From: Bacteroidales bacterium
Lineage (GTDB): Bacteria > Bacteroidota > Bacteroidia > Bacteroidales > VadinHA17
Length of the DNA: 64,000 nucleotides
Assembly: GCA_036261265.1 (NCBI GenBank)
Contig: DATALC010000074.1
Coordinates: 17,393 to 81,392, forward strand
Reading direction: 5' to 3'
In this document: positions 22,049 through 61,689 of the stretch, one piece after another
Position numbering within the stretch: the first letter of the stretch is position 1
Layout: every line of letters starts with the position of its first letter
The notes under the pieces: generated by a model
Seen by the model: only the letters and a program-made list of their open reading frames with translations
Told to the model about the DNA's origin: nothing
Database searches by the model: none
Made by a program: the position numbers and the translations under genes

Positions 22049-23218
22049 TCAGGCATTTGAAACAGGAATTGCATAGGTAAGAACATCTTTTCCTGTTATT
22101 TCATTAGGGCAGAGAATAATAAGTCTCTCAAGCACATTCCTGAATTCTCTGATATTACCCGTCCATTGAATTTTCTGCAGCTCGCTTATTGCATCTTTAG
22201 TGATAGTTTTTCTGCTCATGCCATATTCACCGCATATAAGCGAATTGAAATGGTCTGCAAGGATCGGGATATCCTCAGCCCGTTCATTGAGGGAAGGAAC
22301 ATGAATGAGTATTACACTTATACGGTGATAAAGATCTTCCCTGAAGTTGTTACTTTCAATTTCCTTTTTGATGTTTTTGTTAGTTGCAGCTACTACCCTG
22401 ACATTTACATGAATATCCTTATCTGAACCAACTCTGCTTATTTTATTTTCCTGCAATGCACGAAGAACTTTTGCCTGGGCAGATAAGCTCATATCACCTA
22501 TTTCATCGAGGAAAAGAGTACCGCCATTAGCCTGTTCAAATTTGCCTATTCTCTGCTTGATTGCAGAGGTGAAGGAACCTTTCTCATGACCGAAAAGTTC
22601 ACTTTCTATCAATTCTGAAGGTATAGCTGCACAGTTTACCTCTACAAAGGGACCTTTGGCGCGTGGGCTTTTCTCATGGATCTGATGTGCCACAAGTTCT
22701 TTACCCGTGCCGTTTGATCCTGTTATAAGCACTCTTGCCTCGGTGGGAGCCACCCTGTCGATCATCTGTTTTACCTGCCTTATTGCCTCTGATTCTCCCA
22801 CGATCTCGTACATCTTGCTCACTTTGTTCTTCAGCACCTGGGTCTGTATGATAAGAGTGGATTTATCGAGTGCATTACGAATTGTTATGAGAAGCCTGTT
22901 AAGGTCAAGAGGTTTCTCAAGAAAATCATAAGCGCCTTTTTTTATTGATTCCACGGCAGTGTCGATATTCCCATGACCTGATATCATTACAACAGGAATA
23001 TCCCTTGAAGCTTCGGTTATCCTCGATAGAACCTCAATTCCATCCATTTTCGCCATCTTGATATCGCATAATACAATATCGTAAGAGTTTGAAGCAAAAA
23101 GCTCCAGGCCTTTTGGACCATCCTCTGCAAGGTCGACCTCGTGTTTCTCATATTCGAGTACGTCCTTGAGGGTGTTTCTTATTGCACGCTCATCATCTAT
23201 TACAAGGATTTTTGACAT
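22049..23218 (-). CDS. sigma-54-dependent response regulator (receiver plus AAA+ domain) lacking a C-terminal HTH domain
   Basis: Receiver (ILVIDDE...DIKMAKMDG), Walker A GSNGTGKE, sigma-54 contact loop GSFTSA (GAFTGA variant), Walker B LFLDEIGDM. Ends about 35 aa after the AAA+ lid (NIREFRNVLERL). Confidence 0.85.
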   Translation of the reverse strand: MSKILVIDDERAIRNTLKDVLEYEKHEVDLAEDGPKGLELFASNSYDIVLCDIKMAKMDGIEVLSRITEASRDIPVVMISGHGNIDTAVESIKKGAYDFLEKPLDLNRLLITIRNALDKSTLIIQTQVLKNKVSKMYEIVGESEAIRQVKQMIDRVAPTEARVLITGSNGTGKELVAHQIHEKSPRAKGPFVEVNCAAIPSELIESELFGHEKGSFTSAIKQRIGKFEQANGGTLFLDEIGDMSLSAQAKVLRALQENKISRVGSDKDIHVNVRVVAATNKNIKKEIESNNFREDLYHRISVILIHVPSLNERAEDIPILADHFNSLICGEYGMSRKTITKDAISELQKIQWTGNIREFRNVLERLIILCPNEITGKDVLTYAIPVSNA

Positions 23219-23220
23219 GG

Positions 23221-23457
23221 CTACAATGCTTTATCCCCTGCGGGGAAATTGAAACATTTTTATTTTCTACAATGCTTGATCCCCTACGGGGAAATTGAAA
23301 ACATTATTTATATTCTACAATGCTTTATCCCCTACGGGGAAATTGAAAACATTTTTATATTCTACAATGCTTTATCCCCTACGGGGAAATTGAAAACATT
23401 ATTTATATTCTACAATGCTTTATCCCCTACGGGGAAATTGAATAGTTTTTTATTTAT
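23221..23457 (+). repeat. tandem array, 5 copies of a 47-48-bp hairpin-containing unit
   Basis: Copies start at 23221, 23267, 23315, 23362 and 23410. Core is CTACAATGCTTTATCCCCTACGGGGAAATTGAAAAC plus an 11-12-nt AT-rich linker. Each unit contains a TCCCC-NNN-GGGGA hairpin. Confidence 0.95.
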
Positions 23458-23458
23458 T

Positions 23459-23519
23459 CATTCATTCATTCAATCATTCATTCAATCAATCATTCATTCA
23501 TTCAATCATTCATTCATTC
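23459..23519. repeat. tetranucleotide microsatellite (CATT/CAAT), 15 units
   Basis: CATTx3 CAAT CATTx2 CAATx2 CATTx3 CAAT CATTx3, read directly. Ends 15 nt before the ABC permease stop codon (23535-23537). Confidence 0.95.
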
Positions 23520-23534
23520 TCCCCTTCACCCCTG

Positions 23535-24890
23535 TCATCCTTTATACATTATCCATTTCCACATTTCTTTCCATGATGCTTTTTTGCCGTACATAAGGAT
23601 ACCTATCCTGTACACCTTTGCACCCATCCATACAAAAGCGAGGAATGTACCCAGCATGAGGATCATTGAAAGAGCGAGCTGCCATACAGGTACGCCGAAA
23701 GGAATACGCGCCATCATTACAATAGGAGAGGTGAGGGGAATTATTGAGAACCAGAAAGCAAGCGGGCTTTCCGGATTCGACATTGTTCCCATTGCAACCA
23801 TAAGCGCCAGAATTATTGGAATCGTAACAGGCAGCATAAACTGCTGGGTTTCTGTTTCATTATCAACTGCCGAACCGATTGCTGCAAAGATTGATGAGTA
23901 AAGAAGATATCCTGTTATGAAGAAAAATATGAATGAGAATATAATCAAGCCCCAGGGCTGGTTCATTGCACTTTCGAAAACCTCAGTGTATTTGATCATA
24001 TCGGGAGAAGCCTGTGCAGGAGTTGTCACACTGTCAGGCAGATTACTATTCATCACATTAGACGGAATGTTCTGTGTTATGGTTGTAATATCCTTGTCTT
24101 TCATAATATTGTTCTTCACAACCATAACAGTTGCAGACATAAGTAAAATCCAGATCAGGAACTGAGTGAGGCCAACGAGTGCGATCCCAAGAATCTTACC
24201 CATCATAAGCTGATATGGTTTTACAGATGAGATTATTACCTCAACAACCCTGCTTGTTTTTTCTTCAATTACACCTCTCATAACCTGTGAACCGAAGATG
24301 AATATCAGCATATACATCAAAAAACCAAGGCCGTAAGTGAGAATCATTGAAATTCCTGTGCTTGTCTTTTTTTCTTGCCCGGTTGTATCGATTGTACTTG
24401 TTTGTATTGAAACTTTTGTTTCAACTGCTTTCATAATATCATCGAGGCTGTCGATTTTGAAGGCAAGCAATTTCTGTCTTTCGATCTCTTTTTTCAGTGT
24501 ACCTTCAATATTTTCAAGAAGGCTCATAGGGGGCTGCTTCTTTGAAATAAGCTTTACAGCATTAGGTGTATTCACAATTTCAGGAGAAATCCATAGGATC
24601 CCGTAATAATCAGATGTATTCAGAGATGATTTAAGCTCATCGAATGATTTGCCCTCTATATATTCAAAATCTATGTCATCCCTGTCTTTCAGAACTCCCC
24701 TGAAGAGATCAGATCCATCCTCAACCACAGCAATTTTCTTGAAATCACCGCCTTCATCCATCATAAGGTAAGTAGGCAATATTATAAGAGCAGCCATTAG
24801 TATGGGAGCAAGGATTGTCATTACTATGAATGATTTCTTCCTGACCCTTGTCAAATACTCTCTTTTAATTATGACTGATATTTTGTTCAT
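23535..24890 (-). CDS. ABC-2 type transporter permease (NatB-like)
   Basis: 451 aa: N-terminal TM, large extracytoplasmic domain, then 5 C-terminal TM segments. Follows the ABC ATPase. Confidence 0.75.
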   Translation of the reverse strand: MNKISVIIKREYLTRVRKKSFIVMTILAPILMAALIILPTYLMMDEGGDFKKIAVVEDGSDLFRGVLKDRDDIDFEYIEGKSFDELKSSLNTSDYYGILWISPEIVNTPNAVKLISKKQPPMSLLENIEGTLKKEIERQKLLAFKIDSLDDIMKAVETKVSIQTSTIDTTGQEKKTSTGISMILTYGLGFLMYMLIFIFGSQVMRGVIEEKTSRVVEVIISSVKPYQLMMGKILGIALVGLTQFLIWILLMSATVMVVKNNIMKDKDITTITQNIPSNVMNSNLPDSVTTPAQASPDMIKYTEVFESAMNQPWGLIIFSFIFFFITGYLLYSSIFAAIGSAVDNETETQQFMLPVTIPIILALMVAMGTMSNPESPLAFWFSIIPLTSPIVMMARIPFGVPVWQLALSMILMLGTFLAFVWMGAKVYRIGILMYGKKASWKEMWKWIMYKG

Positions 24891-24907: not shown

Positions 24908-25816
24908 TTAGTTTTTTGACTCAACTACCCTGATGAAAATATCATTCATCGAAGGCAGGGCAGGATTGAAAGATATAATGTTGCCTGTGTGCATCAGGCT
25001 CTGGAGCAGTTCATTTGGTTTGATTTTATCTGTTGTTCTCAACCTTATGAAGCTCTTATTATTTTCAGATTCCTGTTTTATAACATTGTACAAACCGTTT
25101 CCGTCCATCTGTACCTGTCCGTCAAAAACAAGATCGTACTCATTCCCGGCCCATTGTCTTCTTATTTCGTCAACGCTTCCCTCGAGTATGGCTTTACCTT
25201 TGTCAATTAACGTAATATTATCACAGAGTTCCTCAACTGAAGCCATGTTATGAGTAGAGAAAATTATAGTGGCTCCCCTTTCCCTGAGAAAGAGGATTTC
25301 ATTTTTTATAATGTTTGCATTTACCGGATCGAACCCTGAGAATGGTTCGTCGAAAATCAGCAGCTTAGGTTCATGCAGAACTGTAGTAATGAATTGAACT
25401 TTCTGTTGCATACCCTTTGAGAGCTCTTCTACTTTCTTACCCCACCAGTCTACAATTTCGAGTTTTTTAAACCAGTATTTAAGCCTTCTCATTGCTTCGG
25501 CTTTCGGAAGACCCTTAAGCTGTGCAAAATATAAAGCCTGCTCGCCGACCTTCATTTTTTTGTATAGGCCTCTTTCCTCGGGCAGGTAGCCGATTGCCTG
25601 TACATCATTGATAGCCAATTTTTTCCCATTAAGGAAGAGTTCACCAGAATCGGGGCCGGTGATCTGATTGATTATCCTGATAAGTGTTGTTTTTCCTGCT
25701 CCATTCGGACCCAATAATCCGTAAATACATTTTTCAGGAACTGAAACGCTCACATTATCAAGGGCAAGATGATTAACGAATTGTTTAGAGACATTCCTTG
25801 CTTCAAAAAGAGCCAT
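24908..25816 (-). CDS. ABC transporter ATP-binding protein
   Basis: Walker A GPNGAGKTT, signature LSKGMQQKV, Walker B LLIFDEPFSGFD. Confidence 0.9.
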   Translation of the reverse strand: MALFEARNVSKQFVNHLALDNVSVSVPEKCIYGLLGPNGAGKTTLIRIINQITGPDSGELFLNGKKLAINDVQAIGYLPEERGLYKKMKVGEQALYFAQLKGLPKAEAMRRLKYWFKKLEIVDWWGKKVEELSKGMQQKVQFITTVLHEPKLLIFDEPFSGFDPVNANIIKNEILFLRERGATIIFSTHNMASVEELCDNITLIDKGKAILEGSVDEIRRQWAGNEYDLVFDGQVQMDGNGLYNVIKQESENNKSFIRLRTTDKIKPNELLQSLMHTGNIISFNPALPSMNDIFIRVVESKN

Positions 25817-33203: not shown

Positions 33204-33280
33204 GGATACACCAACGAACATTTTATTAACTTTCGCGGTTTTTTTATGTTTCTAACCTGAAAGTGTTAAAATGGTTTGTT

Positions 33281-35224
33281 ATGAAGGAGTCGGCCAGCAT
33301 TGATATTAAAAAACTCTCATTTGCCGGTCTGATAGTCACGCTGGGGATTGTTTTCGGGGATCTTGGTACAAGCCCTCTTTACGTCATGAAAGCCATAGTA
33401 AGAGGAGGAAGTGAATTTAATGATCTTCTTCTCTATGGTTCTCTTTCCTGTATATTCTGGACACTGACTCTGCAGACAACCACAAAATACATTCTTATCG
33501 CGCTGAATGCCGATAATAAGGGTGAAGGAGGGATAATGGCCCTGTTTGCCCTTATCAGGAGAAAATCGACATGGGCCGCCATACTGACAATGGTCGGGGG
33601 GTCAGCGCTTTTGGCAGATGGCGTAATAACACCGGCAATTACAGTAACATCATCTGTTGAAGGTCTGAAGATATATAATCCTGATATTCCTGTAGTTCCA
33701 ATTGTTTTATTCATATTTGTCATACTCTTCTTTATCCAGCAATTCGGAACCAACTTCATAGGAAACTCATACGGACCTATCATGGTACTTTGGTTCTCTA
33801 TGCTTGGAATACTCGGGTTCAGTAACCTTGTATACCATCCTGAGATTCTGAAGGCAATCAATCCCGAATATGCGTTCCATTTCCTTAGAGAGTACCCTGG
33901 GGGCTTCATTCTTCTAGGAGCGGTTTTCCTCTGTACTACAGGAGCTGAGGCTTTATATGCAGACCTTGGGCACTGTGGAAAATCAAACATTAGAATTTCG
34001 TGGCTTTTTGTTAAGATAACATTGTTGCTCAATTATTTCGGTCAGGGAGCCTGGATGATAATGAAAGGCCAGCCCGGAGCAGAAGTGAATCCTTTCTTTG
34101 CAATAATGCCGAGATGGTTTCTTTTACCGGGCATAATGCTTGCTACTGCCGCTTCAATCATTGCCAGCCAGGCTATAATAAGCGGGTCATTCACAATAAT
34201 CAAGGAAGCTGTTTCCCTTAATTTCTGGCCGAAGGTGAGAGTGCTTAATCCCACTGCCAACAGGGGCCAGGTATTTATTCCTTTCGTTAATGGTTACCTC
34301 TTCGTCGCCTGCAGCCTTGTCGTTATCTTTTTCCGTGAATCTGCAAACATGGAAGCGGCTTACGGGCTTGCAATTACAATCACCGAAATGATGACGACAT
34401 TTCTTCTTGCTTATTACCTTTACCAGCGTGGTATAAACCACAGGCTTGTTCTTGTAATGCTTATGGTTTATTTTACTGTTGAAGGAAGCTTCCTGATAGC
34501 AAATCTTCATAAGTTCAACGATGGAGGATGGTTTACGCTACTCGCCGCACTTATATTCTTTATTATTATGTACGGCTGGTATTTTGGCAGGAAGCTTAAA
34601 AACAGGTATGTTACATTCACAACACTTGATAAATACTTTGCAATGTTCAGGGATATCTCCAAAGATGAATCAATCCCGAAATATGCAACAAATCTTGTAT
34701 ACGTAATAAGAGCCAACAGGGGAGACCAGGTTGAGTCAAAAGTTATCTATTCAATCTTCCAGAAACAGCCAAAGCGGGCTGATACTTACTGGCTGCTTCA
34801 TGTTAACAATGTTGACGAACCAAACAGGTTCGAATATGAAGTAAAGCAGATAATACCTGGTATTCTGATCCGTGTTGACTTTCATATTGGATTCAAGATA
34901 GAACCCAAGATAAACCTGTATTTCAGGGAAGTAGTCGAAGATATGGTGGCTTCGGGTCAGATAAAGATAGAAAGTTCATATCCCTCCCTGAGGAAACATT
35001 CAATGCCTGCCGATTTTAAATATGTTCTTATTGACAGGGTTATGCCAAGGGATTATAAACTATCGACTATTGAAAATTTTATACTCTCTCTTCATAACAT
35101 CTCAAGAATGGTAGGTATCTCAGATATCAAAGCGCTTCAGCTTGATTCAGCAAATACAATCGAGGAAAAGGTCCCGATAACTATAGATCAGACTGTGCCG
35201 ATGAGGATAAAACGCATCGGATAG
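33281..35224 (+). CDS. kup: KUP/HAK/KT family potassium transporter (copy 1)
   Basis: GDLGTSPLYV, ADNKGEGG and YADLGHCG blocks. ATG at 33281 preferred over GTG at 33263. Confidence 0.9.
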   Translation: MKESASIDIKKLSFAGLIVTLGIVFGDLGTSPLYVMKAIVRGGSEFNDLLLYGSLSCIFWTLTLQTTTKYILIALNADNKGEGGIMALFALIRRKSTWAAILTMVGGSALLADGVITPAITVTSSVEGLKIYNPDIPVVPIVLFIFVILFFIQQFGTNFIGNSYGPIMVLWFSMLGILGFSNLVYHPEILKAINPEYAFHFLREYPGGFILLGAVFLCTTGAEALYADLGHCGKSNIRISWLFVKITLLLNYFGQGAWMIMKGQPGAEVNPFFAIMPRWFLLPGIMLATAASIIASQAIISGSFTIIKEAVSLNFWPKVRVLNPTANRGQVFIPFVNGYLFVACSLVVIFFRESANMEAAYGLAITITEMMTTFLLAYYLYQRGINHRLVLVMLMVYFTVEGSFLIANLHKFNDGGWFTLLAALIFFIIMYGWYFGRKLKNRYVTFTTLDKYFAMFRDISKDESIPKYATNLVYVIRANRGDQVESKVIYSIFQKQPKRADTYWLLHVNNVDEPNRFEYEVKQIIPGILIRVDFHIGFKIEPKINLYFREVVEDMVASGQIKIESSYPSLRKHSMPADFKYVLIDRVMPRDYKLSTIENFILSLHNISRMVGISDIKALQLDSANTIEEKVPITIDQTVPMRIKRIG

Positions 35225-35275: not shown

Positions 35276-37240
35276 ATGGCAATGAAGAAAGTCAGCAGTA
35301 CTATTGAGAGGACACAGTTGACAATCCCTGGGCTGATCATAACCCTGGGTCTTGTATACGGGAACCTGGGAACAAGCCCTCTTTACACTATTAAAGCAAT
35401 ATTCTCAAATTCAAAGGCTTTCAATGAACTTCTTATTTACGGCTCCCTCTCAGCTATCTTCTGGACACTTACATTATTATCTACTGTTAAATATATAACA
35501 ATAACATTGCAGGCCGATAATAAGGGTGAAGGTGGAATATTCGCACTCTTTGCTCTTCTCAGGAAAAAAACAACACTTGCAGCTTTACTGACAATGATCG
35601 GAGGAGCCGCGCTCCTTGCCGACAGTGTACTTACTCCTGCAATCACTGTAACTTCAGCTGTTGAAGGCTTTTCATTGTTCAAACCAGATTTTCCAGTTGT
35701 GCCGGTGGTCTTAATAATATTCGGCATGATTTTCTTTGTACAACAGTTCGGAATTAATTTCTACGCATGGAGATTATTTGGTCCTATTATGCTAATCTGG
35801 TTTACACTGCTTGCATTTACAGGACTCAGGCAAATAGTAGCTATGCCTGCTATCCTGGAATCGCTTAATCCTGTCTATGCAGTAAAGTTTATTACGCAAT
35901 TTCCGGGGGGATTTGTATTGCTTGGCTTTGTATTCCTTTGTGTAACAGGCGCTGAATCAATTTATTCTGATCTTGGACATTGCGGCAGGAAAAACATCAG
36001 GATATCCTGGGCATTCGTTAAGATTGCTCTTTTACTTAATTACTTTGGCCAGGGAGCATGGATACTGCAGAACAAACCGGGCGATAATTCAATTATGCCA
36101 TTTTTCGAAATAATTCCCGGCTGGCTGCTGATACCTGGATTAATTATAACGCTTGCTGCTTCAGCCGTGGCCACACAATCTCTTATAAGAGGATCATTTA
36201 CAATCATTTCCGAGGCAGTTTCACTTAATTTCTGGCCAAAGATCAAGACAGTCAATCCAACAGAAGTTCGCGGACAGGTTTACCTGCCTCTTATTAACTG
36301 GATGCTTCTCACGTTATGCTGCATTGCAGTTCTTGTATTCAGGGAATCTTCACAGATGGAAGTAGCGTACGGTCTATCAATCGCAATCACAATGATAATG
36401 ACGACATTCCTCCTTATATTCTATCTGAATAACAGGGGGATGGATTTTCGTCTTGCAATCCTGATGCTTTCAGTTTTCCTGATAGCTGAAGGCATGTTTC
36501 TTGTTTCGAACCTGCATAAATTTCTTTTGGGCGGATGGTTTACAATCCTGATTGCTTCCGCATATTTTCTTGCAATGTTCGGCTGGTATTTTGGAAGGAA
36601 GATCAAGAACAGGCGAATAACATTTGTAAACCTCGATAAGTACATTGAATCATTCATTGACCTGAATAAAGACGAAACAATACCAAAAGCCGCCACTAAT
36701 CTTGTTTATATAATTAAAGCTAATAATCCTGCGCAGGTTGAATCGAAGGTTATATATTCAATATTCAATAAGCAACCCAAACGGGCAGACCATTACTGGC
36801 TTCTTCATGTTGATATGGTAGATGAGCCAAACAGGTGCGAATACAAGGTTAAGCAGATAATCCCGGGGATCCTTATAAGAGTAGATTTTCATATTGGTTT
36901 TAAGGTGGATCCACAAATAAACCTTCATTTCAGGGAAGTGGTTGAAGATATGGTAAAATCAGGTGAGATAAAGCTTGAAAACGGGTTTGATTCATTGCGG
37001 AAACATGGATTACCTCCTGATTTCAAGTTCGTTATCCTTGAAAGGATCATTCTGCCTGACTTCAAATTGTCTAATGTCGAAAATTTTATACTTACAATCC
37101 GGGGTTTCATCAGGAAAATGAGTATTCCTGACGAAAAAGCTCTGCAGCTTGATTCGGCCAATACAATAGTCGAACAGATACCTATAGTTATTGATCAGCC
37201 GGTGAGTACCAGGATTCAGCCTGTTAAAAGAGAGGGATGA
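35276..37240 (+). CDS. kup: KUP/HAK/KT family potassium transporter (copy 2)
   Basis: GNLGTSPLYT, ADNKGEGG and YSDLGHCG blocks. Colinear with copy 1 over its full length. Confidence 0.9.
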   Translation: MAMKKVSSTIERTQLTIPGLIITLGLVYGNLGTSPLYTIKAIFSNSKAFNELLIYGSLSAIFWTLTLLSTVKYITITLQADNKGEGGIFALFALLRKKTTLAALLTMIGGAALLADSVLTPAITVTSAVEGFSLFKPDFPVVPVVLIIFGMIFFVQQFGINFYAWRLFGPIMLIWFTLLAFTGLRQIVAMPAILESLNPVYAVKFITQFPGGFVLLGFVFLCVTGAESIYSDLGHCGRKNIRISWAFVKIALLLNYFGQGAWILQNKPGDNSIMPFFEIIPGWLLIPGLIITLAASAVATQSLIRGSFTIISEAVSLNFWPKIKTVNPTEVRGQVYLPLINWMLLTLCCIAVLVFRESSQMEVAYGLSIAITMIMTTFLLIFYLNNRGMDFRLAILMLSVFLIAEGMFLVSNLHKFLLGGWFTILIASAYFLAMFGWYFGRKIKNRRITFVNLDKYIESFIDLNKDETIPKAATNLVYIIKANNPAQVESKVIYSIFNKQPKRADHYWLLHVDMVDEPNRCEYKVKQIIPGILIRVDFHIGFKVDPQINLHFREVVEDMVKSGEIKLENGFDSLRKHGLPPDFKFVILERIILPDFKLSNVENFILTIRGFIRKMSIPDEKALQLDSANTIVEQIPIVIDQPVSTRIQPVKREG

Positions 37241-39123: not shown

Positions 39124-40398
39124 ATGATTAATATTCCTGATACAGATAAGAAAAGAATTGTAATTGCCGGGTGCGGTTTCGGTGGTCTTACCCTTGCAAA
39201 AAAGTTAAAGAATTCAGATTACCAGGTTGTAATTATTGATAAGCATAATTACCATCAGTTTCCGCCATTATTTTACCAGGTTGCCTCTGCTGGACTTGAA
39301 CCATCATCAATTTTGTTCCCGCTCAGGAAAATTTTCCAGGATTATAAGGATTACCATATAAGAAAAGCAGAGATAACAGGAGTTGTTCCTGAAAATAGTA
39401 TTATTAACACTACCGCAGGCGAGTTAAGATACGACTATCTTGTTCTTGCACACGGAGCAACAAATTCCTTCTTCGGCTCAGATGAAATGAGACGATGCTC
39501 CAATCCTATGAAAACAATTGCAGAAGCCCTCAATCTCAGGAACACTCTTCTCATGAACTTCGAAAAAGCACTCACATCAAATGATGAGGCGGAACGCGCT
39601 AAGAACCTGAGCATTGTAATAATTGGAGGTGGCCCCTCGGGTGTAGAGATCGCCGGGGCGCTCGCTGAAATGGATAAGTATATACTCCGGAAAGATTATC
39701 CTGATCTTGAAGGGCGTGGTGCAAAGATTTACCTGCTTGAAGGTAACAACAGGCTTCTGAATATGATGTCCGAAAAATCTTCATCAAAAGCACGGCAATT
39801 CCTTGAGAAGCTTGGCGTTAAAGTCTTCACGGATACGCTTGCAAAAGGATGCACTGAAGATAAAGTTTTCCTGGCTGACGGAGAGACATTATCGGCAGGC
39901 ATGATAATATGGACAGCAGGTATTACAGGGAACAGTATCCCCGGTATAAGGGAAGAGTGTTTTCAGAGAAACAACAGGCTGATCACTGATCGACAATGCC
40001 TTGTGAAAGGTTATAGGAATATTTTCGCAATCGGCGACATAGCGTATATGACCGAAGAGAAATACCCCAGGGGGCATCCACAGGTTGCTCCTGTTGCAAT
40101 TCAGCAGGCAAGGTTTCTAGCAGATCATCTTAAAAGGATAAAAACCGGCAAACAAGTTAAGGAATTCAGGTATTTTGATAAGGGTACGATGGCCACAGTA
40201 GGCAGGAATCTGGCAGTTGTTGAACTCCCGTTCATGAGGTTCCAGGGATTTTTCGGATGGCTTGTCTGGATGTTCGTTCACCTGATGAGCATCGTGGGTG
40301 TGAAGAACAGGCTTATGATCTTCATAAACTGGGCATGGAATTATCTTACATACGATCAGTCTACAAGGCTAATCCTCAGGCCCAAAGGTTGTTCCTGA
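39124..40398 (+). CDS. ndh: type II NADH:quinone oxidoreductase (NDH-2)
   Basis: Two dinucleotide-binding motifs (IVIAGCGFGG; IVIIGGGPSGVE) and a C-terminal membrane-anchoring helix. Confidence 0.85.
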   Translation: MINIPDTDKKRIVIAGCGFGGLTLAKKLKNSDYQVVIIDKHNYHQFPPLFYQVASAGLEPSSILFPLRKIFQDYKDYHIRKAEITGVVPENSIINTTAGELRYDYLVLAHGATNSFFGSDEMRRCSNPMKTIAEALNLRNTLLMNFEKALTSNDEAERAKNLSIVIIGGGPSGVEIAGALAEMDKYILRKDYPDLEGRGAKIYLLEGNNRLLNMMSEKSSSKARQFLEKLGVKVFTDTLAKGCTEDKVFLADGETLSAGMIIWTAGITGNSIPGIREECFQRNNRLITDRQCLVKGYRNIFAIGDIAYMTEEKYPRGHPQVAPVAIQQARFLADHLKRIKTGKQVKEFRYFDKGTMATVGRNLAVVELPFMRFQGFFGWLVWMFVHLMSIVGVKNRLMIFINWAWNYLTYDQSTRLILRPKGCS

Positions 40399-40433
40399 AA
40401 AAATTGTTATCTTTATATATAACTTTCAGTGAT

Positions 40434-42407
40434 ATGAGTAAGCCATTTATTTCTTTATCACTCGTGATAGCTTTGTTGAATGCAACACCATTATCTGCCC
40501 AATCCATCACCGAGATTAATGTTAATGCAGGAAAACCAGTGGGTGAGATCCAACCAACTATGTGGGGTGTGTTCTTTGAAGATATAAACTTTGCGGCCGA
40601 TGGAGGATTATATGCCGAGCTGGTGAAAAACAGGTCTTTCGAATTTTCAATTCCCCTGATGGGATGGAAGCAGATAAAAATGAAAGGTGAAGGTCGCGCA
40701 CTTCCTTCATTCTATACACCGGCAAATGAAAGGAATCCTCATTACCTGCGGCTTATCGTTGATGCCGACAGTGGTACGTACGGTATCGAGAACGAAGGCT
40801 TTCGTGGAATGGGTCTCAGGGAAGGAGTAAAATATATATTTTCTTTCAATGCAAAAGTATCTGAAGGTTCGGATCTGAAAATGACTGTGAGGCTCCTCGG
40901 GGAAAAAGGAAAAGCTTTATGGGTGACAGGAGTAGGTGGACTTACAAGTGAATGGCAGCGTCATTCGGCGATACTCACACCTGTTGCTACTGAAACAGAA
41001 GCCACAATGCAGATACTCTTCTCCGGTAAAGGAACGATTGATCTCGACCTGATATCCCTTTTCCCTGAAGATACCTGGAAGAACCGTCCCGGTGGGCTCA
41101 GGCGCGACCTTGTTCAGATGATAGCTGATCTCAAACCCGGGTTCCTCCGTTTTCCCGGTGGGTGCATTGTTGAAGGACGCGACATCACGAACAGGTATCA
41201 GTGGAAATATACTGTCGGACCCGTTCAGGCACGCAAGCTTATTATCAACCGCTGGAACATGGAGATGAAAAACAGGCCGGCTCCTGATTATTTTCAATCT
41301 TACGGGCTTGGATTCTATGAGTATTTCCAGCTTGCTGAAGATATCGGTGCAGAGCCTTTACCTGTACTGAATTGCGGGATGTCGTGCCAGTTCAATGCTG
41401 CAGAGGTAGTTCCTCTTGAAGATATTGATCCTTATATCCAGGATGCTCTCGATCTGATAGAATTTGCGAATGGGGATTCATTATCTGAATGGGGGAGACT
41501 CAGGACTTCCATGGGACACCCGGGGACATTCAATCTGAAATTCATTGCTATCGGGAATGAACAATGGGATGAACAGTATTTCGAGCGATATGCTCTTTTT
41601 GATAAGGTTCTCAGAGAGAGACATCCTGAAATAAAAATTATTTCCGGTTCGGGTCCCTCATCTTCAGGTAAGATGTTCGATTATGCCTGGGAGAGGCTGA
41701 GAACAATGAAACCTGATCTTATCGATGAACATTATTATATGCCTCCCGAATGGTTTTTTGATAACGCGGGAAGATATGACAACTACGATCGCAAAGGGAT
41801 AAAGGTGTTTGCAGGTGAATATGCCGCCCATGGAAAGATGTCTGAAGAACCCGAATCCGGAAACACATTGTACAGCGCTCTTGCTGAAGCTGCATTTATG
41901 ACAGGGCTCGAGAGAAATGCAGAGGTTATCAAAATGGCATCGTATGCCCCCCTTCTTGCACATGTTGATGCGTGGCAGTGGCGACCCGATCTGATCTGGT
42001 TTGATAATCTGAATGTTGCAGGAACACCTAATTACTATGTTCAGAAATTGTTTTCGAATTATAAGGGAACTGATGTTGTTCAGGTAGTATCCGCCGGAAA
42101 GTACCTTGCGGGACAAGATAGTATTTATGCAAGCGCGACAATAGATAAAACCTTAAAAAGGATCTACATCAAGATTGTAAATATTGCAGCATCTGCAAAA
42201 CCTGCCAGGATCAATATTGAAGGTGTATCATTTGGAAAAGAAGCAACATTGATGACACTGAAAGGGAACAAAACCGATTACAATACTGTTGACAACCCTG
42301 AAAATATTATACCTGTGAACGGAACATTATCACTAAAGGGTAAAACACTTAATCTTGAACTCGAACCATTATCTCTGAAGGTCATTTTAATCCCCATGAA
42401 CAAATAA
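40434..42407 (+). CDS. alpha-L-arabinofuranosidase, GH51-like
   Basis: Start at ATG 40434 (MSKPFISLSLVIALLNATPLSAQS signal peptide). LVKNRSFEF N-terminal domain, LRFPGGC, IAIGNEQW (catalytic GNE). The listed start at 40257 overlaps ndh. Confidence 0.8.
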   Translation: MSKPFISLSLVIALLNATPLSAQSITEINVNAGKPVGEIQPTMWGVFFEDINFAADGGLYAELVKNRSFEFSIPLMGWKQIKMKGEGRALPSFYTPANERNPHYLRLIVDADSGTYGIENEGFRGMGLREGVKYIFSFNAKVSEGSDLKMTVRLLGEKGKALWVTGVGGLTSEWQRHSAILTPVATETEATMQILFSGKGTIDLDLISLFPEDTWKNRPGGLRRDLVQMIADLKPGFLRFPGGCIVEGRDITNRYQWKYTVGPVQARKLIINRWNMEMKNRPAPDYFQSYGLGFYEYFQLAEDIGAEPLPVLNCGMSCQFNAAEVVPLEDIDPYIQDALDLIEFANGDSLSEWGRLRTSMGHPGTFNLKFIAIGNEQWDEQYFERYALFDKVLRERHPEIKIISGSGPSSSGKMFDYAWERLRTMKPDLIDEHYYMPPEWFFDNAGRYDNYDRKGIKVFAGEYAAHGKMSEEPESGNTLYSALAEAAFMTGLERNAEVIKMASYAPLLAHVDAWQWRPDLIWFDNLNVAGTPNYYVQKLFSNYKGTDVVQVVSAGKYLAGQDSIYASATIDKTLKRIYIKIVNIAASAKPARINIEGVSFGKEATLMTLKGNKTDYNTVDNPENIIPVNGTLSLKGKTLNLELEPLSLKVILIPMNK

Positions 42408-42420
42408 TATAAAAAATCCG

Positions 42421-42600
42421 CTATCTACAATGCTTAATCCTCTACGAGGATAATAATTGATCTCTCATAAATGTTTGTTATTATCTACAATGCTTAATCC
42501 TCTGCGAGGATAATAATTGATCCCTCATAAATGTTTGTAATTATCTACAATGCTTAATCCTCTGAGAGGATAATAATTGATCTCTCATAAAGAATAATTA
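42421..42600 (+). repeat. tandem array, 3 copies of a 60-bp hairpin-containing unit, related to the 23221 array
   Basis: Exact 60-bp period (42421, 42481, 42541). Unit is TTATCTACAATGCTTAATCCTC-NNN-GAGGATAATAATTGATCTCTCATAAATGTTTGTTA. Shares TCTACAATGCTT plus a hairpin with the first array. Confidence 0.95.
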
Positions 42601-42604
42601 TTAA

Positions 42605-42662
42605 CTCTAGTCACTCTAGTCACTCTAGTCACTCTAGTCACTTTAGTCACTTTAGTCACTCT
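42605..42662. repeat. 9-bp minisatellite (CTCTAGTCA / CTTTAGTCA), 6 copies
   Basis: Read directly. Immediately follows the 60-bp array. Confidence 0.95.
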
Positions 42663-42671
42663 AAAAATAGT

Positions 42672-42696: not shown

Positions 42697-43317
42697 ATGG
42701 GTTTTTTCCAGACTTTATTCGATTGGTATATGGCCAATCTGAATTACTTTACAATCGCATTGCTGATGGCAATAGAAAGCACTTTTTTGCCATTACCTTC
42801 TGAAATTGTAATTCCTTTTGCAGCCTGGAAGGCAGCTCAGGGCGAGCTTAATGTCTTTCTTGTTGTTATATTCGGCACAATAGGCGCTCTATGCGGTTCA
42901 CTGATAAATTATACACTTGCATATTATCTTGGACGGCCTCTTGTTTACAGTTTCGCAGAATCGCGCATTGGCAGGTTTTTCCTTTTATCAAGAGAGAAAG
43001 TGCAGCACGCCGAGGATTATTTTATAAGAAATGGAAAAACATCGACTTTTATCGGCCGCCTTGTGCCCGGTGTAAGGCATCTTATCTCAATTCCCGCAGG
43101 TCTTGCGAAAATGAGACTGAAGGATTTTATTTTATTTACTATTGCCGGTGCAGGAATATGGAATATTATCCTTGCCGTTATTGGATTTTTCCTTTATGAA
43201 ATAAAAGATCAGATCTACGCCTATCTCGATGATGTTTTAATAGGAGTAGGTGTCCTTTTTGTAGCATACCTTGTTTACAAAGCCTTAAAAAAAAATAAAA
43301 GCAATACACAGGAGTGA
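42697..43317 (+). CDS. DedA family membrane protein
   Basis: 206 aa with the SNARE-associated/DedA layout (ESTFLPLPSEIVIPFAAW...GRLVPGVRHLISIPAG). Confidence 0.8.
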   Translation: MGFFQTLFDWYMANLNYFTIALLMAIESTFLPLPSEIVIPFAAWKAAQGELNVFLVVIFGTIGALCGSLINYTLAYYLGRPLVYSFAESRIGRFFLLSREKVQHAEDYFIRNGKTSTFIGRLVPGVRHLISIPAGLAKMRLKDFILFTIAGAGIWNIILAVIGFFLYEIKDQIYAYLDDVLIGVGVLFVAYLVYKALKKNKSNTQE

Positions 43318-47970: not shown

Positions 47971-47974
47971 CAGC

Positions 47975-48060
47975 TCAATAATGGGGTGCCTTATAACAAC
48001 GGGCTGAGATCATACCCTTAGAACCTGATCCGGGTAATGCCGGCGTAGGGAGGAAGAGTA
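47975..48060 (+). promoter_or_regulatory. TPP riboswitch (THI element)
   Basis: GGGGTGCC...GGGCTGAGA...ACCCTTAGAACCTGATCCGGGTAATGCCGGCGTAGGGAGG matches the conserved THI-box core (CUGAGA; ACCUGAUCyGGnUAAUnCCnGCGnAGGGA). Confidence 0.9.
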
Positions 48061-48125
48061 TAAAACAAAACAGCATTTTTTCATAAGTCACTCCGGAAGT
48101 TCAACTAGTAAAACGGACTTATGTT

Positions 48126-60311: not shown

Positions 60312-61610
60312 GTGCCCAACTTCAAACAGATAGCTGTGAGATATCTTTTTCTTGTAATATGGTTTCTTATATCATCAGTAACATTTGCACAGCTGACAGC
60401 TCCGGGTAGCAAAACAATCAGTTATACTGTTTATCCTTCAACTCCGGAAGTTAAGGATCCTGTTTTCATCTATTGTAATCCAACAGGATCAGTGACGGGT
60501 GAATTGCAGGCTGTTTTGCCAGGTGGAACAGAAGCGTCGGACTTTAAATGGTTCAGATGGAACAATACTTCACTCTCTTTTAGTGATGTTATAAAAAACG
60601 ATGCAGGCGTAACGACATCATCTGTCAATAATCTCACTGAAGGTGGTTACAGGGTCATAATAAGCGGAAATTATAACGATACGTTGACAGGATGGATCGA
60701 TATTGATCAGCCAAAGGGTAAAGCCAGCCTTATGAACAGAACATGCGATTATGTTGCATTAAATGGCGGAGGCATTGGCGTTGATCCGTTTTATTATTAC
60801 GATATTATTAACGGGAAACCGGTATTGCTTCCGAATAGCGTCAGCTTTATATGGTCTTCAACGCCTGAATCAAGCATCCCTTATCCTGATTTTGAAAAAA
60901 ATCCACAGACTTTTAACCCTCCGCTTCAGGATGTTACATATAATCTCCGTATTTCAGATAACTTCGGATGCGTTAATGAATCTTCATTCCTCTATGAATC
61001 AATTCATGTAAATGCTGAGTTCACATCCGATCCGGTTGAAGGTGAAGCTCCACTTGAGGTTTCATTTACAGACAAATCTGTGAGGGCATCAAAAAAGTAT
61101 ACCTGGGATTTTGGAGAGAAAACACCAGATGGCAAGAACATCACCTGGACAGTAACAAATGATCCCGATTCATTATGGATATTCAAACAGCCTTTCATGC
61201 ACAAATACTATATCCCGGGTGAATATTCAGTAAGCGTGATGATTGAAAGCACCCTTGGATGCACAGACTCATTCAGGCTTGCCCAGAAGATAGTTGTGGA
61301 ACCATCTGATGTTGAAATACCAAATGTTTTTACTCCGGATGGAGATGGAATCAATGACTATTTCAGGCCTTTAACAAAATCACTCAGGTATATTGCAATC
61401 GAAGTATTCAGCAGAAGCGGATTACGGGTTTACAATTTCATCGGACAGGGTGAGGATCTTGCTTCATGGCAGGGCTGGGACGGCAATGTAAATGAATCGT
61501 CTGCCAAAGCCGCACCAGGCGTTTATTTCTACATCATCAGGGCCCAGGGTTGGGATGATGTTAAATATGATTCTAAGGCACAAAGGGGGTATGTTTATCT
61601 TTATAGATAA
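60312..61610 (+). CDS. secreted PKD-domain protein with T9SS type-B (gliding-motility-associated) C-terminal sorting domain
   Basis: Signal peptide. PKD-like FTSDPVEGEAPLEVSFTDKS. C-terminal IPNVFTPDGDGINDYF...YFYII...GYVYLYR. GTG start is uncertain. Confidence 0.75.
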   Translation: MPNFKQIAVRYLFLVIWFLISSVTFAQLTAPGSKTISYTVYPSTPEVKDPVFIYCNPTGSVTGELQAVLPGGTEASDFKWFRWNNTSLSFSDVIKNDAGVTTSSVNNLTEGGYRVIISGNYNDTLTGWIDIDQPKGKASLMNRTCDYVALNGGGIGVDPFYYYDIINGKPVLLPNSVSFIWSSTPESSIPYPDFEKNPQTFNPPLQDVTYNLRISDNFGCVNESSFLYESIHVNAEFTSDPVEGEAPLEVSFTDKSVRASKKYTWDFGEKTPDGKNITWTVTNDPDSLWIFKQPFMHKYYIPGEYSVSVMIESTLGCTDSFRLAQKIVVEPSDVEIPNVFTPDGDGINDYFRPLTKSLRYIAIEVFSRSGLRVYNFIGQGEDLASWQGWDGNVNESSAKAAPGVYFYIIRAQGWDDVKYDSKAQRGYVYLYR

Positions 61611-61617
61611 AGTTCTT

Positions 61618-61689
61618 AAAGTCTGTAAAGTTTATAAAGTCTGTAAAGTTTTTAGAGTCTGTAAAGTTTTTAGAGTCTGTAAAGTTCGA
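61618..61689. repeat. 18-bp tandem repeat, 4 copies (ARAGTCTGTAAAGTTTWT)
   Basis: Read directly between the convergent stops at 61610 and 61701. Confidence 0.9.

Follow-up and report, generated by a model that had tools for sequence, protein, structure and literature searches.

Bacterial selfish DNA that persists over long times and is inherited vertically has its textbook example in systems that pair repetitive extragenic palindromic (REP) sequences with a REP-associated tyrosine transposase (RAYT); to our knowledge such systems are described almost only from Proteobacteria. The pairing of repeat and enzyme, the REPtron (Nunvar 2010; Bertels & Rainey 2011; Ton-Hoang 2012; Quentin 2018), provides the reference for the element reported here. 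The stretch analysed, 64,000 nucleotides from a Bacteroidales bacterium (contig DATALC010000074.1, positions 17,393 to 81,392; hereafter the window), contains two arrays of short hairpin units. We read both as clusters of one REP-like repeat family of the Bacteroidota whose partner in related genomes is an apparently single-copy IS200-like Y1 (HUH) transposase, a REPtron-like arrangement to which we assign a probability of roughly 70%. An initial annotation of the window had listed a REP/BIME-like element (BIME, bacterial interspersed mosaic element) among several options for the first array, and this is the one that the data support, as the family is dispersed and in relatives flanks the Y1 gene.

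Array 1 consists of five head-to-tail units of 46-48 bp, starting at positions 23221, 23267, 23315, 23362 and 23410, a number and a consensus that agree with the initial annotation. Tandem Repeats Finder (TRF) places it at 23221-23453 with period 48, 4.9 copies, 93% matches and a score of 399, and also calls a period of 95, as two linker forms alternate to give a 95-bp super-period. Each unit opens with the tag CTACAATGCTT, followed by NA, a 5-bp hairpin (T-CCC-C/TAC/G-GGG-A), AA and an AT-rich linker of 19-21 nt; the linkers are near-identical, and measure 11-12 nt when counted after the 36-nt repeat or ~20 nt after the 28-nt core. When a unit is folded as single-stranded DNA the hairpin alone forms, at -4 kcal/mol and a z of about -2. 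Together with a tetranucleotide tract the array fills the whole 316-bp gap between the stop of an ABC permease gene (23535) and the ATG of a sigma-54 activator (23218), exactly as had been described, the tag side of the first unit lying 2 nt from the ATG and the microsatellite side 15 nt from the permease stop codon. The tract, CATT with CAAT variants, had likewise been recorded, its length being 68 nt (17 copies) rather than the 60 nt then given, and its first copy is the ATTC that closes the linker of the last unit.

The second array, which the initial annotation had not reported, lies 19 kb from the first and supplies three of the eight motif copies in the window. Its three 60-bp units have the same tag, begin TCTACAATGCTT-WA-TCC and carry a 6-bp hairpin, ATCCTC/TRC/GAGGAT. 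Comparison of the stems, CCTC/GAGG in array 2 with CCCC/GGGG in array 1, reveals a compensatory change, leaving TCTACAATGCTT-WA-T-NNN-C-TAC-G-NNN-A-A as the core common to both. A search for TCTACAATGCTTWATCC with up to three mismatches gives eight matches in the window against 0.38 expected, a count not attained in any of 100 shuffles. R1, a covariance model built on the 30-nt core, recovers exactly these eight units in the 64 kb and no others, scoring 44-48.8 bits (E 1e-12 to 3e-14) for array 1 and 38.9-45.3 bits for array 2.

The core recurs widely in related genomes. When one genome was taken for each species and searched for a pair of tags 30-60 nt from each other, nine loci with the same core came to light in Rikenella and other Bacteroidales metagenome-assembled genomes (MAGs), and a metagenome scan for the core identified at least 120 loci. 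In 1.18 Mb of fetched related metagenome loci we counted 594 units, compared to about 13 in shuffled sequence. These form ~200 clusters, all of them intergenic. Of these, 69 are units standing alone, 86 are arrays of a single orientation with as many as 14 units, and the other 45 of the 131 multi-unit clusters mix orientations and contain inverted copies. The initial annotation had held that a motif found nowhere else would point to a neutral local duplication, and the motif is present hundreds of times outside the window. A literature search for the 11-mer tag returned unrelated primers only, and the tag is not in the REP lists of Quentin 2018.

Matches outside the Bacteroidota (Nostoc, Symploca, Merismopediaceae, Parabeggiatoa, Methylococcaceae, Woeseiaceae, Verrucomicrobia, Treponema and Firmicutes) were set aside, either as chance matches in other tandem repeats or as canonical hairpin-CTAC REPs that happen to continue AATGCTT, and were not used as evidence; one 11-mer inside any tandem repeat satisfies the search pattern. 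Among them, tandem repeats bearing CTACAATGCTT in loci from Nostoc (L003), Merismopediaceae (L004), Symploca (L024) and the Beggiatoa relative Parabeggiatoa (L020) adjoin heptamer tracts or canonical hairpin-CTAC REPs, which we treat as chance and as a lead only. These taxa overlap those in which MacGregor 2015 described heptamer repeats, and the Cyanobacteria are one of the two phyla with Y1 transposases of subclass 1.2. Within the Bacteroidota, a Bacteroidaceae MAG (L012:611-692, L016:2121-2290) has another tandem repeat in which CTACAATGCTT sits in the loop of a ~13-bp stem, and which could be either coincidence or another type of substrate.

Across relatives the family has the consensus (T)C-TACAATGCTT-N-A-T-NNN-C-TAC-G-NNN-A-A. 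The tag, (C)TACAATGCTT, is a nearly invariant 11-nt block on which purifying selection acts, separated by a 2-nt spacer from the 5-bp hairpin. In the hairpin the closing pairs T-A and C-G and the loop TAC are fixed, and the three inner pairs vary freely yet stay complementary. Pairing holds in 96.6% of stem cells, both sides change in four of the five pairs, and the stem has at least 10 variants that are complementary throughout. Its covariation score is higher than in any shuffle, and controls slid along the unit are at most 49% paired. The hairpin is under selection. Two A's follow it, and then an unconserved linker of ~20 nt, the identity of which is 0.64 within arrays compared to 0.32 between arrays, no more than for random sequence. 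Of 198 spacings between units, 190 fall within 46-52 nt. At position -1 a C is found in 97% of inner units but in 36% of first units, which often carry TTAC, with TAC kept in both. This pattern at the boundary fits an IS608-like junction between target and element, as if the base came from the target.

The arrays also have a clear polarity. Among 114 arrays of a single orientation, 61 have a short-period tract within 130 nt on the 3' side and 12 have one on the 5' side. The 3' tracts start 0-13 nt past the last hairpin in 41 of 67 cases and have a period of 7 in 61 of the 67, with a core of ACTG or TYGC, up to 26 copies and an orientation that is almost always fixed. Those of the window have periods of 4 and 9, not 7, and are unusual members of the same array-plus-3'-tract arrangement. 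In the relatives (loci L030-L149) heptamer tracts occur about once per 6.6 kb; 86 of the 159 lie beside unit arrays, and roughly half have no adjoining unit. Two likenesses to the tag are recorded here as resemblances only: CTACTGC is similar to CTAC(AA)TGC of the tag, and the CAAT/CATT tract of array 1 could be a stutter of the tag's CAAT. A third microsatellite of the window, (TAAAGTYYK) x8.8 at 61608-61687, directly follows the stop of a CHU_C/type IX secretion system (T9SS) gene (60312-61610); it has no adjoining hairpin unit and may correspond, as an orphan, to the tracts found after arrays.

Arrays with both flanking open reading frames (ORFs) called (n=113) lie between co-directional genes in 79 cases, convergent genes in 24 and divergent genes in 10, and occur in both orientations relative to these genes. 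Their tag side often adjoins a start codon (at 2-9 nt) or a stop codon (at 11-16 nt). The initial annotation's suggestion of a variable copy number gains support, from short-read assemblies only, at one locus with flanks 99.1-99.9% identical, where 13 units (L132:6208-6819) are present in one assembly and 7 (L082:1680-1997) in another, reflecting either a true polymorphism or assembly collapse of the repeat. Logan short-read contigs of the window's own organism (L027, L028, L029) end inside array 1 and at array 2; arrays of this kind will fragment assemblies and hence be under-reported. We abandoned a reading of the active strand from G-T versus A-C mismatches because the unit finder is biased toward one strand.

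Relatives also provide the candidate enzyme. A scan of the ORFs between unit clusters, with a later hidden Markov model search, identified at one locus (L117) a gene for a 162-aa Y1_Tnp protein (PF01797, E 1.5e-22), its end 26 nt from a nine-unit mixed cluster; a pattern search for HUH proteins had given no match because the class 2 motif, Y-x3-NP, was assumed. Among the 120 loci for which the DNA motif was the sole search criterion, five have the Y1 gene where roughly 0.3 would be expected, although some of these are repeat recoveries of the same locus in different samples. Homologues of the L117 protein number more than 3,500; the Joint Genome Institute (JGI) has named many of them RayT, and many lie on very short contigs. 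Ten clusters of homologues (about eight ortholog groups, 59-87% identity) were looked up and eight, L117 included, were scanned for flanking units. All eight, which cover at least four different gene neighbourhoods, have units to one side or to both sides of the Y1 gene.

Around the gene, upstream units are often in inverted and downstream units in direct orientation, and units overlap the stop codon or begin 18 nt past it. Four units are present in cluster P0010, the first 18 nt after the Y1 stop; in P0024 one unit upstream of the gene is inverted, and direct units overlap the stop; P0016 has variant CTACAATACC units upstream; and in P0066, P0063 and P0111, which represent three unrelated neighbourhoods, kilobase-scale clusters of CTACAATACCG units lie on both sides. 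The two clusters looked up for gene order only, P0005 and P0023, show the same synteny as other clusters. Around the Y1 genes R1 detects 81 units at E <= 1e-3 in 74 kb, clustered at the gene. The tag tracks the lineage of the enzyme, being CTACAATGCTT in one set and CTACAATACC(G) in others.

Across 22 Y1 homologues, whose columns have a mean identity of 73%, no change occurs in the HUH histidines, in WQ, in the catalytic Tyr or in Q-x2-HH. The motifs DHxH, WQ and Y-I-x-x-Q-x-x-H-H (Y-x3-Q-x2-HH) are those of subclass 1.2 of Quentin 2018. In the clusters looked up there is one Y1 gene per contig and no tnpB, and the gene order SPOR-domain protein - Y1 - Y_Y_Y histidine kinase/LytTR regulator is conserved (L150-L163, L168-L172), as would be expected for a domesticated single-copy enzyme. 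The protein looks both active and domesticated. In these related genomes it is vertically inherited and its gene is embedded in unit clusters, as in a REPtron. A tRNA gene lies just downstream of the Y1 locus in L157 and L161, and an integrase-bearing element just downstream of the Y1 gene in L156-L160. In the searchable literature we found neither this repeat described nor any repeat assigned to subclass 1.2 as its partner.

If it acts as IS608 TnpA and E. coli TnpA-REP do, the Y1 enzyme would bind the hairpin on single-stranded DNA, for instance at the replication fork, cut at or beside the xTAC tag and rejoin the strands. Excision of one-period pieces and their insertion beside an existing tag, combined with slippage between units, could then build the head-to-tail arrays, and the same process could generate both the variation in copy number and tag-derived microsatellites at the 3' end. 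The pattern at position -1 and, if not due to assembly collapse, the locus with 13 and 7 units agree with this scheme. The arrays of the window would have grown until they filled the intergenic space, in array 1 up to the start codon of the regulator, and the genome of this organism would presumably also encode the enzyme.

The features of the window are listed in Table 1. Both arrays are probably carried passively within the operon transcripts, array 1 in that running from permease to regulator, and any effect on expression would be secondary. The GH51 stop is 15 nt before array 2, and between the array 2 microsatellite and the ATG of the DedA/VTT gene lies TACCTTTG, which we take to be a promoter motif of the TAnnTTTG type that Bacteroidetes promoters carry. 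Both arrays are on the + strand, array 1 amid minus-strand genes and array 2 amid plus-strand genes; as array 1 is antisense and array 2 sense to the operons, the arrays are not fixed parts of one kind of transcript. The window looks Bacteroidota-like, with a CHU_C type IX secretion protein, a GH51 arabinofuranosidase and a GC content of ~41%. It further contains a thiamine pyrophosphate (TPP) riboswitch at 47972-48068 (+) (Rfam RF00059, 64.3 bits, E 2.5e-10) and tandem paralogous genes at 33263-35224 and 35276-37240 (+), which encode 653 and 654 aa and have a DNA identity of 71-75%.

Table 1. Repeat arrays, their 3' tracts and flanking genes in the 64-kb window.
Feature	Position	Strand	Basis or remark
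Sigma-54-dependent response regulator gene	22049..23218	-	Pfam Response_reg + Sigma54_activat, E 1.9e-72
Array 1, five head-to-tail units	23221..23456	+	Direct reading, TRF, covariance model R1
Microsatellite (ATTC/CATT, CAAT variants) x17	23452..23519	+	Period 4, 68 nt, 3' side of array 1
ABC-2 family permease gene	23535..24890	-	Pfam ABC2_membrane_3, E 4e-60
ABC ATPase gene	24908-25816		
GH51 alpha-L-arabinofuranosidase gene	40257..42407	+	Pfam
Array 2, three 60-bp units, same tag as array 1	42422..42601	+	TRF, direct reading, covariance model R1
Microsatellite (ACTCTAGTC) x6.7, 9-mer	42604..42663	+	TRF; 3' side of array 2
DedA/VTT-domain membrane protein gene	42697..43317	+	Pfam; downstream of array 2

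Several observations weigh against the reading of these arrays as REP-like clusters with a transposase partner. There is no Y1 transposase gene in the 64-kb window, so that for this organism the link is by family membership only, and a search for its own Y1 gene through Logan-derived homologues returned homologues that were all from other samples. Part of the adjacency between transposase and repeats is inherited with the synteny, which makes the ortholog groups only partly independent. In the PDB the Y1 protein is closest in sequence to IS608 TnpA (E 0.005), E. coli TnpA-REP (4ER8) not being matched, and according to Quentin et al. 2018 subclass 1.2 is IS200-like, low-copy, confined to Cyanobacteria and Bacteroidetes, and has no REPs. 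The repeats themselves depart from the REP paradigm, in which the tetranucleotide is at the foot of a 7-15-bp stem, whereas here an 11-nt tag lies 2-3 nt before a stem of 5 bp. No GT[AG]G or C[TC]AC is present at the hairpin foot: a CTAC opens the tag, which begins 13 nt before the stem, and is 10 nt from that foot, and a second CTAC spans the stem end and the loop of the unit. Head-to-tail arrays at a ~49-nt period dominate over the alternating pairs of BIMEs, all eight window units being on the + strand and 86 clusters in relatives being of single orientation compared to 45 mixed. The one-sided heptamer tracts, and the combination of a fixed 49-nt period with unconserved linkers, are unexplained by known RAYT biology. 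Finally, arrays between co-directional genes lie antisense to them more often than sense (43 against 21), a bias that could point to a role at the level of RNA.

Such an RNA role, in which the intercistronic repeats would be mainly binding or processing sites for an RNA-binding protein or RNase and tune downstream stability or translation, possibly as a secondary job of exapted REPs, seems to us unlikely. It could account for the orientation bias and for the 11 of 62 start-facing arrays, that of the window included, which end 2-9 nt from the start codon, and the covariation of the hairpin would also be expected from selection on RNA; E. coli REPs are known to affect mRNA stability, and MacGregor 2015 (PMC4679880) suggests translational regulation by TAACTGA repeats, for heptamers lying just upstream of start codons. 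However, with both orientations common and 45 of 131 clusters mixed, no single RNA sequence is presented, a difficulty that the antisense array 1 and the sense array 2 already illustrate. The hairpin is weak (-4 kcal/mol), and a scan for sigma-70-type promoters and terminators shows no enrichment in array 1. Rfam searches give only the TPP riboswitch elsewhere when the whole window is run at gathering thresholds, and no match, CRISPR-DR included, when the array is run at E up to 10. Nor would an RNA role predict the tight tie to a DNA transposase gene. A role in duplex DNA, with the units as binding sites for a nucleoid protein, gyrase or a transcription factor, or as promoter arrays with TACAAT as the -10 box, organising or insulating operons, is in our estimation quite improbable. 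The invariant 11-nt tag does imply sequence-specific recognition, the fixed spacing of 46-52 nt could reflect the footprint of a protein, BIMEs in E. coli are known to bind integration host factor (IHF) and gyrase, and the BrickBuilt elements of P. gingivalis have promoter activity. Yet a stem that is free in sequence and nevertheless paired indicates a folded single strand and not duplex recognition. The sole promoter-like match uses the first TACAAT by chance, in a count below the shuffle mean; the unit lacks the TAnnTTTG motif of Bacteroidetes promoters; and arrays are depleted in divergent, promoter-containing gaps (10 of 113).

It is very improbable that the arrays are degenerate or miniature CRISPR-like (short palindromic repeats, clustered and regularly interspaced) arrays, or repeat RNA of a type III toxin-antitoxin system (ToxI-like), despite their regular spacing, the hairpin in each repeat, the ATTGAAAAC that ends array 1 units like a class 1 3' handle, and the 28-nt cores of relatives, which are separated by ~21-nt linkers differing within an array (identity 0.64). 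The likeness to a CRISPR repeat proposed in the initial annotation does not survive comparison, as the ATTGAAAAC tail is outside the conserved core and is lacking in array 2 and in all relatives; nothing resembling ATTGAAAC is present in array 2 or the family consensus. The same annotation was correct that the linkers are too short and too similar to be spacers: they are mostly co-duplicated with the units rather than unique, and at 11-12 or ~20 nt are far shorter than the unique spacers of about 26-72 nt of a CRISPR array. We reject the CRISPR reading, as spacers, adjacent cas genes and any Rfam match are all lacking. Inverted copies occur, and small arrays number in the hundreds per metagenome, where they lie between housekeeping genes and adjoin neither cas nor toxN-like genes. 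In the window the immediate neighbours (ABC transporter, response regulator, GH51, DedA) include no cas gene, although the whole window was not scanned for cas. A ToxI-like element was rejected since what lies downstream is the DedA gene (array 2) or the antisense strand of the permease gene (array 1), not a ToxN/AbiE-type toxin. Least probable of all, to the point of being negligible, is a neutral local tandem duplication or assembly artefact without any family. The near-identical linkers of array 1, the 95-bp super-period, which is a block duplication, and the breaking of short-read contigs at arrays are what it would produce, but the core is found again at a distance of 19 kb, in several MAGs of Bacteroidales and at no fewer than 120 metagenome loci, with a tag under purifying selection and compensatory changes in the stem.

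If the REP-like reading with a Y1 transposase partner is correct, it extends the REP-RAYT idea to the Bacteroidota, where the enzyme is of another class and the repeats are built in an unusual way, and gives a likely substrate to a large, conserved transposase subfamily (more than 3,500 matches) that had no known partner. It also offers a lead on the origin of abundant intergenic heptamer tracts. In practical terms such arrays break short-read assemblies, their variable copy number would be useful for strain typing, and those lying directly against start codons could affect gene expression. A bolder proposal, which we regard as speculative and unlikely, is that the subclass 1.2 Y1 transposases of Bacteroidota drive a distinct system, single-hairpin and tag-guided, which makes fixed-period head-to-tail arrays and leaves 3' heptamer tracts as a by-product. 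Were this so, it would supply the missing mechanism for heptamers of the TAACTGA type and of the STRR type (short tandemly repeated repetitive sequences, the heptamer direct-repeat tracts of Cyanobacteria), as found in Cyanobacteria, Beggiatoaceae and Bacteroidetes, and a new way for an HUH enzyme to make micro- and minisatellites.

Set beside the known systems, the family has most features of a REPtron and lacks two canonical ones, the position of the tetranucleotide and the alternating orientation. In common with the REP/BIME-RAYT systems it has short, intergenic, high-copy hairpin repeats that are solo, head-to-tail or inverted, a tetranucleotide tag (CTAC/GTAG), a Y1 HUH gene that is present once, passed on vertically and flanked by repeats (here in relatives), a tag that co-varies with the enzyme lineage, and tandem reiteration together with flanking DNA, as described for REP clusters by Di Nocera 2013. 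It differs from them in the one-sided microsatellite, and its enzyme has the class 1 motif Y-x3-Q-x2-HH (subclass 1.2) where RAYTs of class 2 have Y-x3-NP. With the IS200/IS605 elements (IS608, ISDra2) it shares the Pfam family Y1_Tnp and, in IS608 TnpA, the best PDB match, and its hairpin with an offset tetranucleotide (xTAC, compared to TTAC in IS608) resembles a left end with its cleavage site. Unlike those elements, it has its gene as a single copy in a conserved gene order, lacks tnpB and any distinct left and right ends, and has 49-nt one-hairpin repeat units that are dispersed without the gene.

Composite repeats are also known in the Bacteroidales themselves. The BrickBuilt or PgRS miniature transposable elements with inverted repeats (MITEs) of P. 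gingivalis (Klein 2015, PMC4596501) are restricted to Porphyromonas and consist of 23-nt bricks with a leader, a tail and IS5-type terminal inverted repeats. They resemble the present family as intergenic composite elements of Bacteroidales with an internal minisatellite, variable copy number and ~20 loci per genome. Their bricks, however, have no hairpin and no sequence similarity to our units, and we found no MITE-type inverted termini by inspection of the arrays, which extend to the microsatellite from a point 2-16 nt away from a start or stop codon; we regard BrickBuilt as analogous but unrelated. CRISPR arrays share the regularly spaced direct repeats, each with a small hairpin, whereas the present arrays have no unique spacers and no adjacent cas genes, and are many, small and in both orientations. 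The TAACTGA and STRR heptamers are alike in another respect, as the tracts on the array side in relatives are nearly always heptamers with an ACTG/TYGC core, intergenic, in up to 26 copies, often near start or stop codons and varying in 7-nt steps. MacGregor 2015 (PMC4679880) reported the TAACTGA repeats from Beggiatoaceae, Cyanobacteria and some Bacteroidetes, an odd phyletic pattern that resembles that of Y1 subclass 1.2, but drew no link to hairpin units or a transposase, and the tracts of the window differ from them in their periods of 4 and 9. It may nevertheless be that these heptamer repeats are connected with the family described here.

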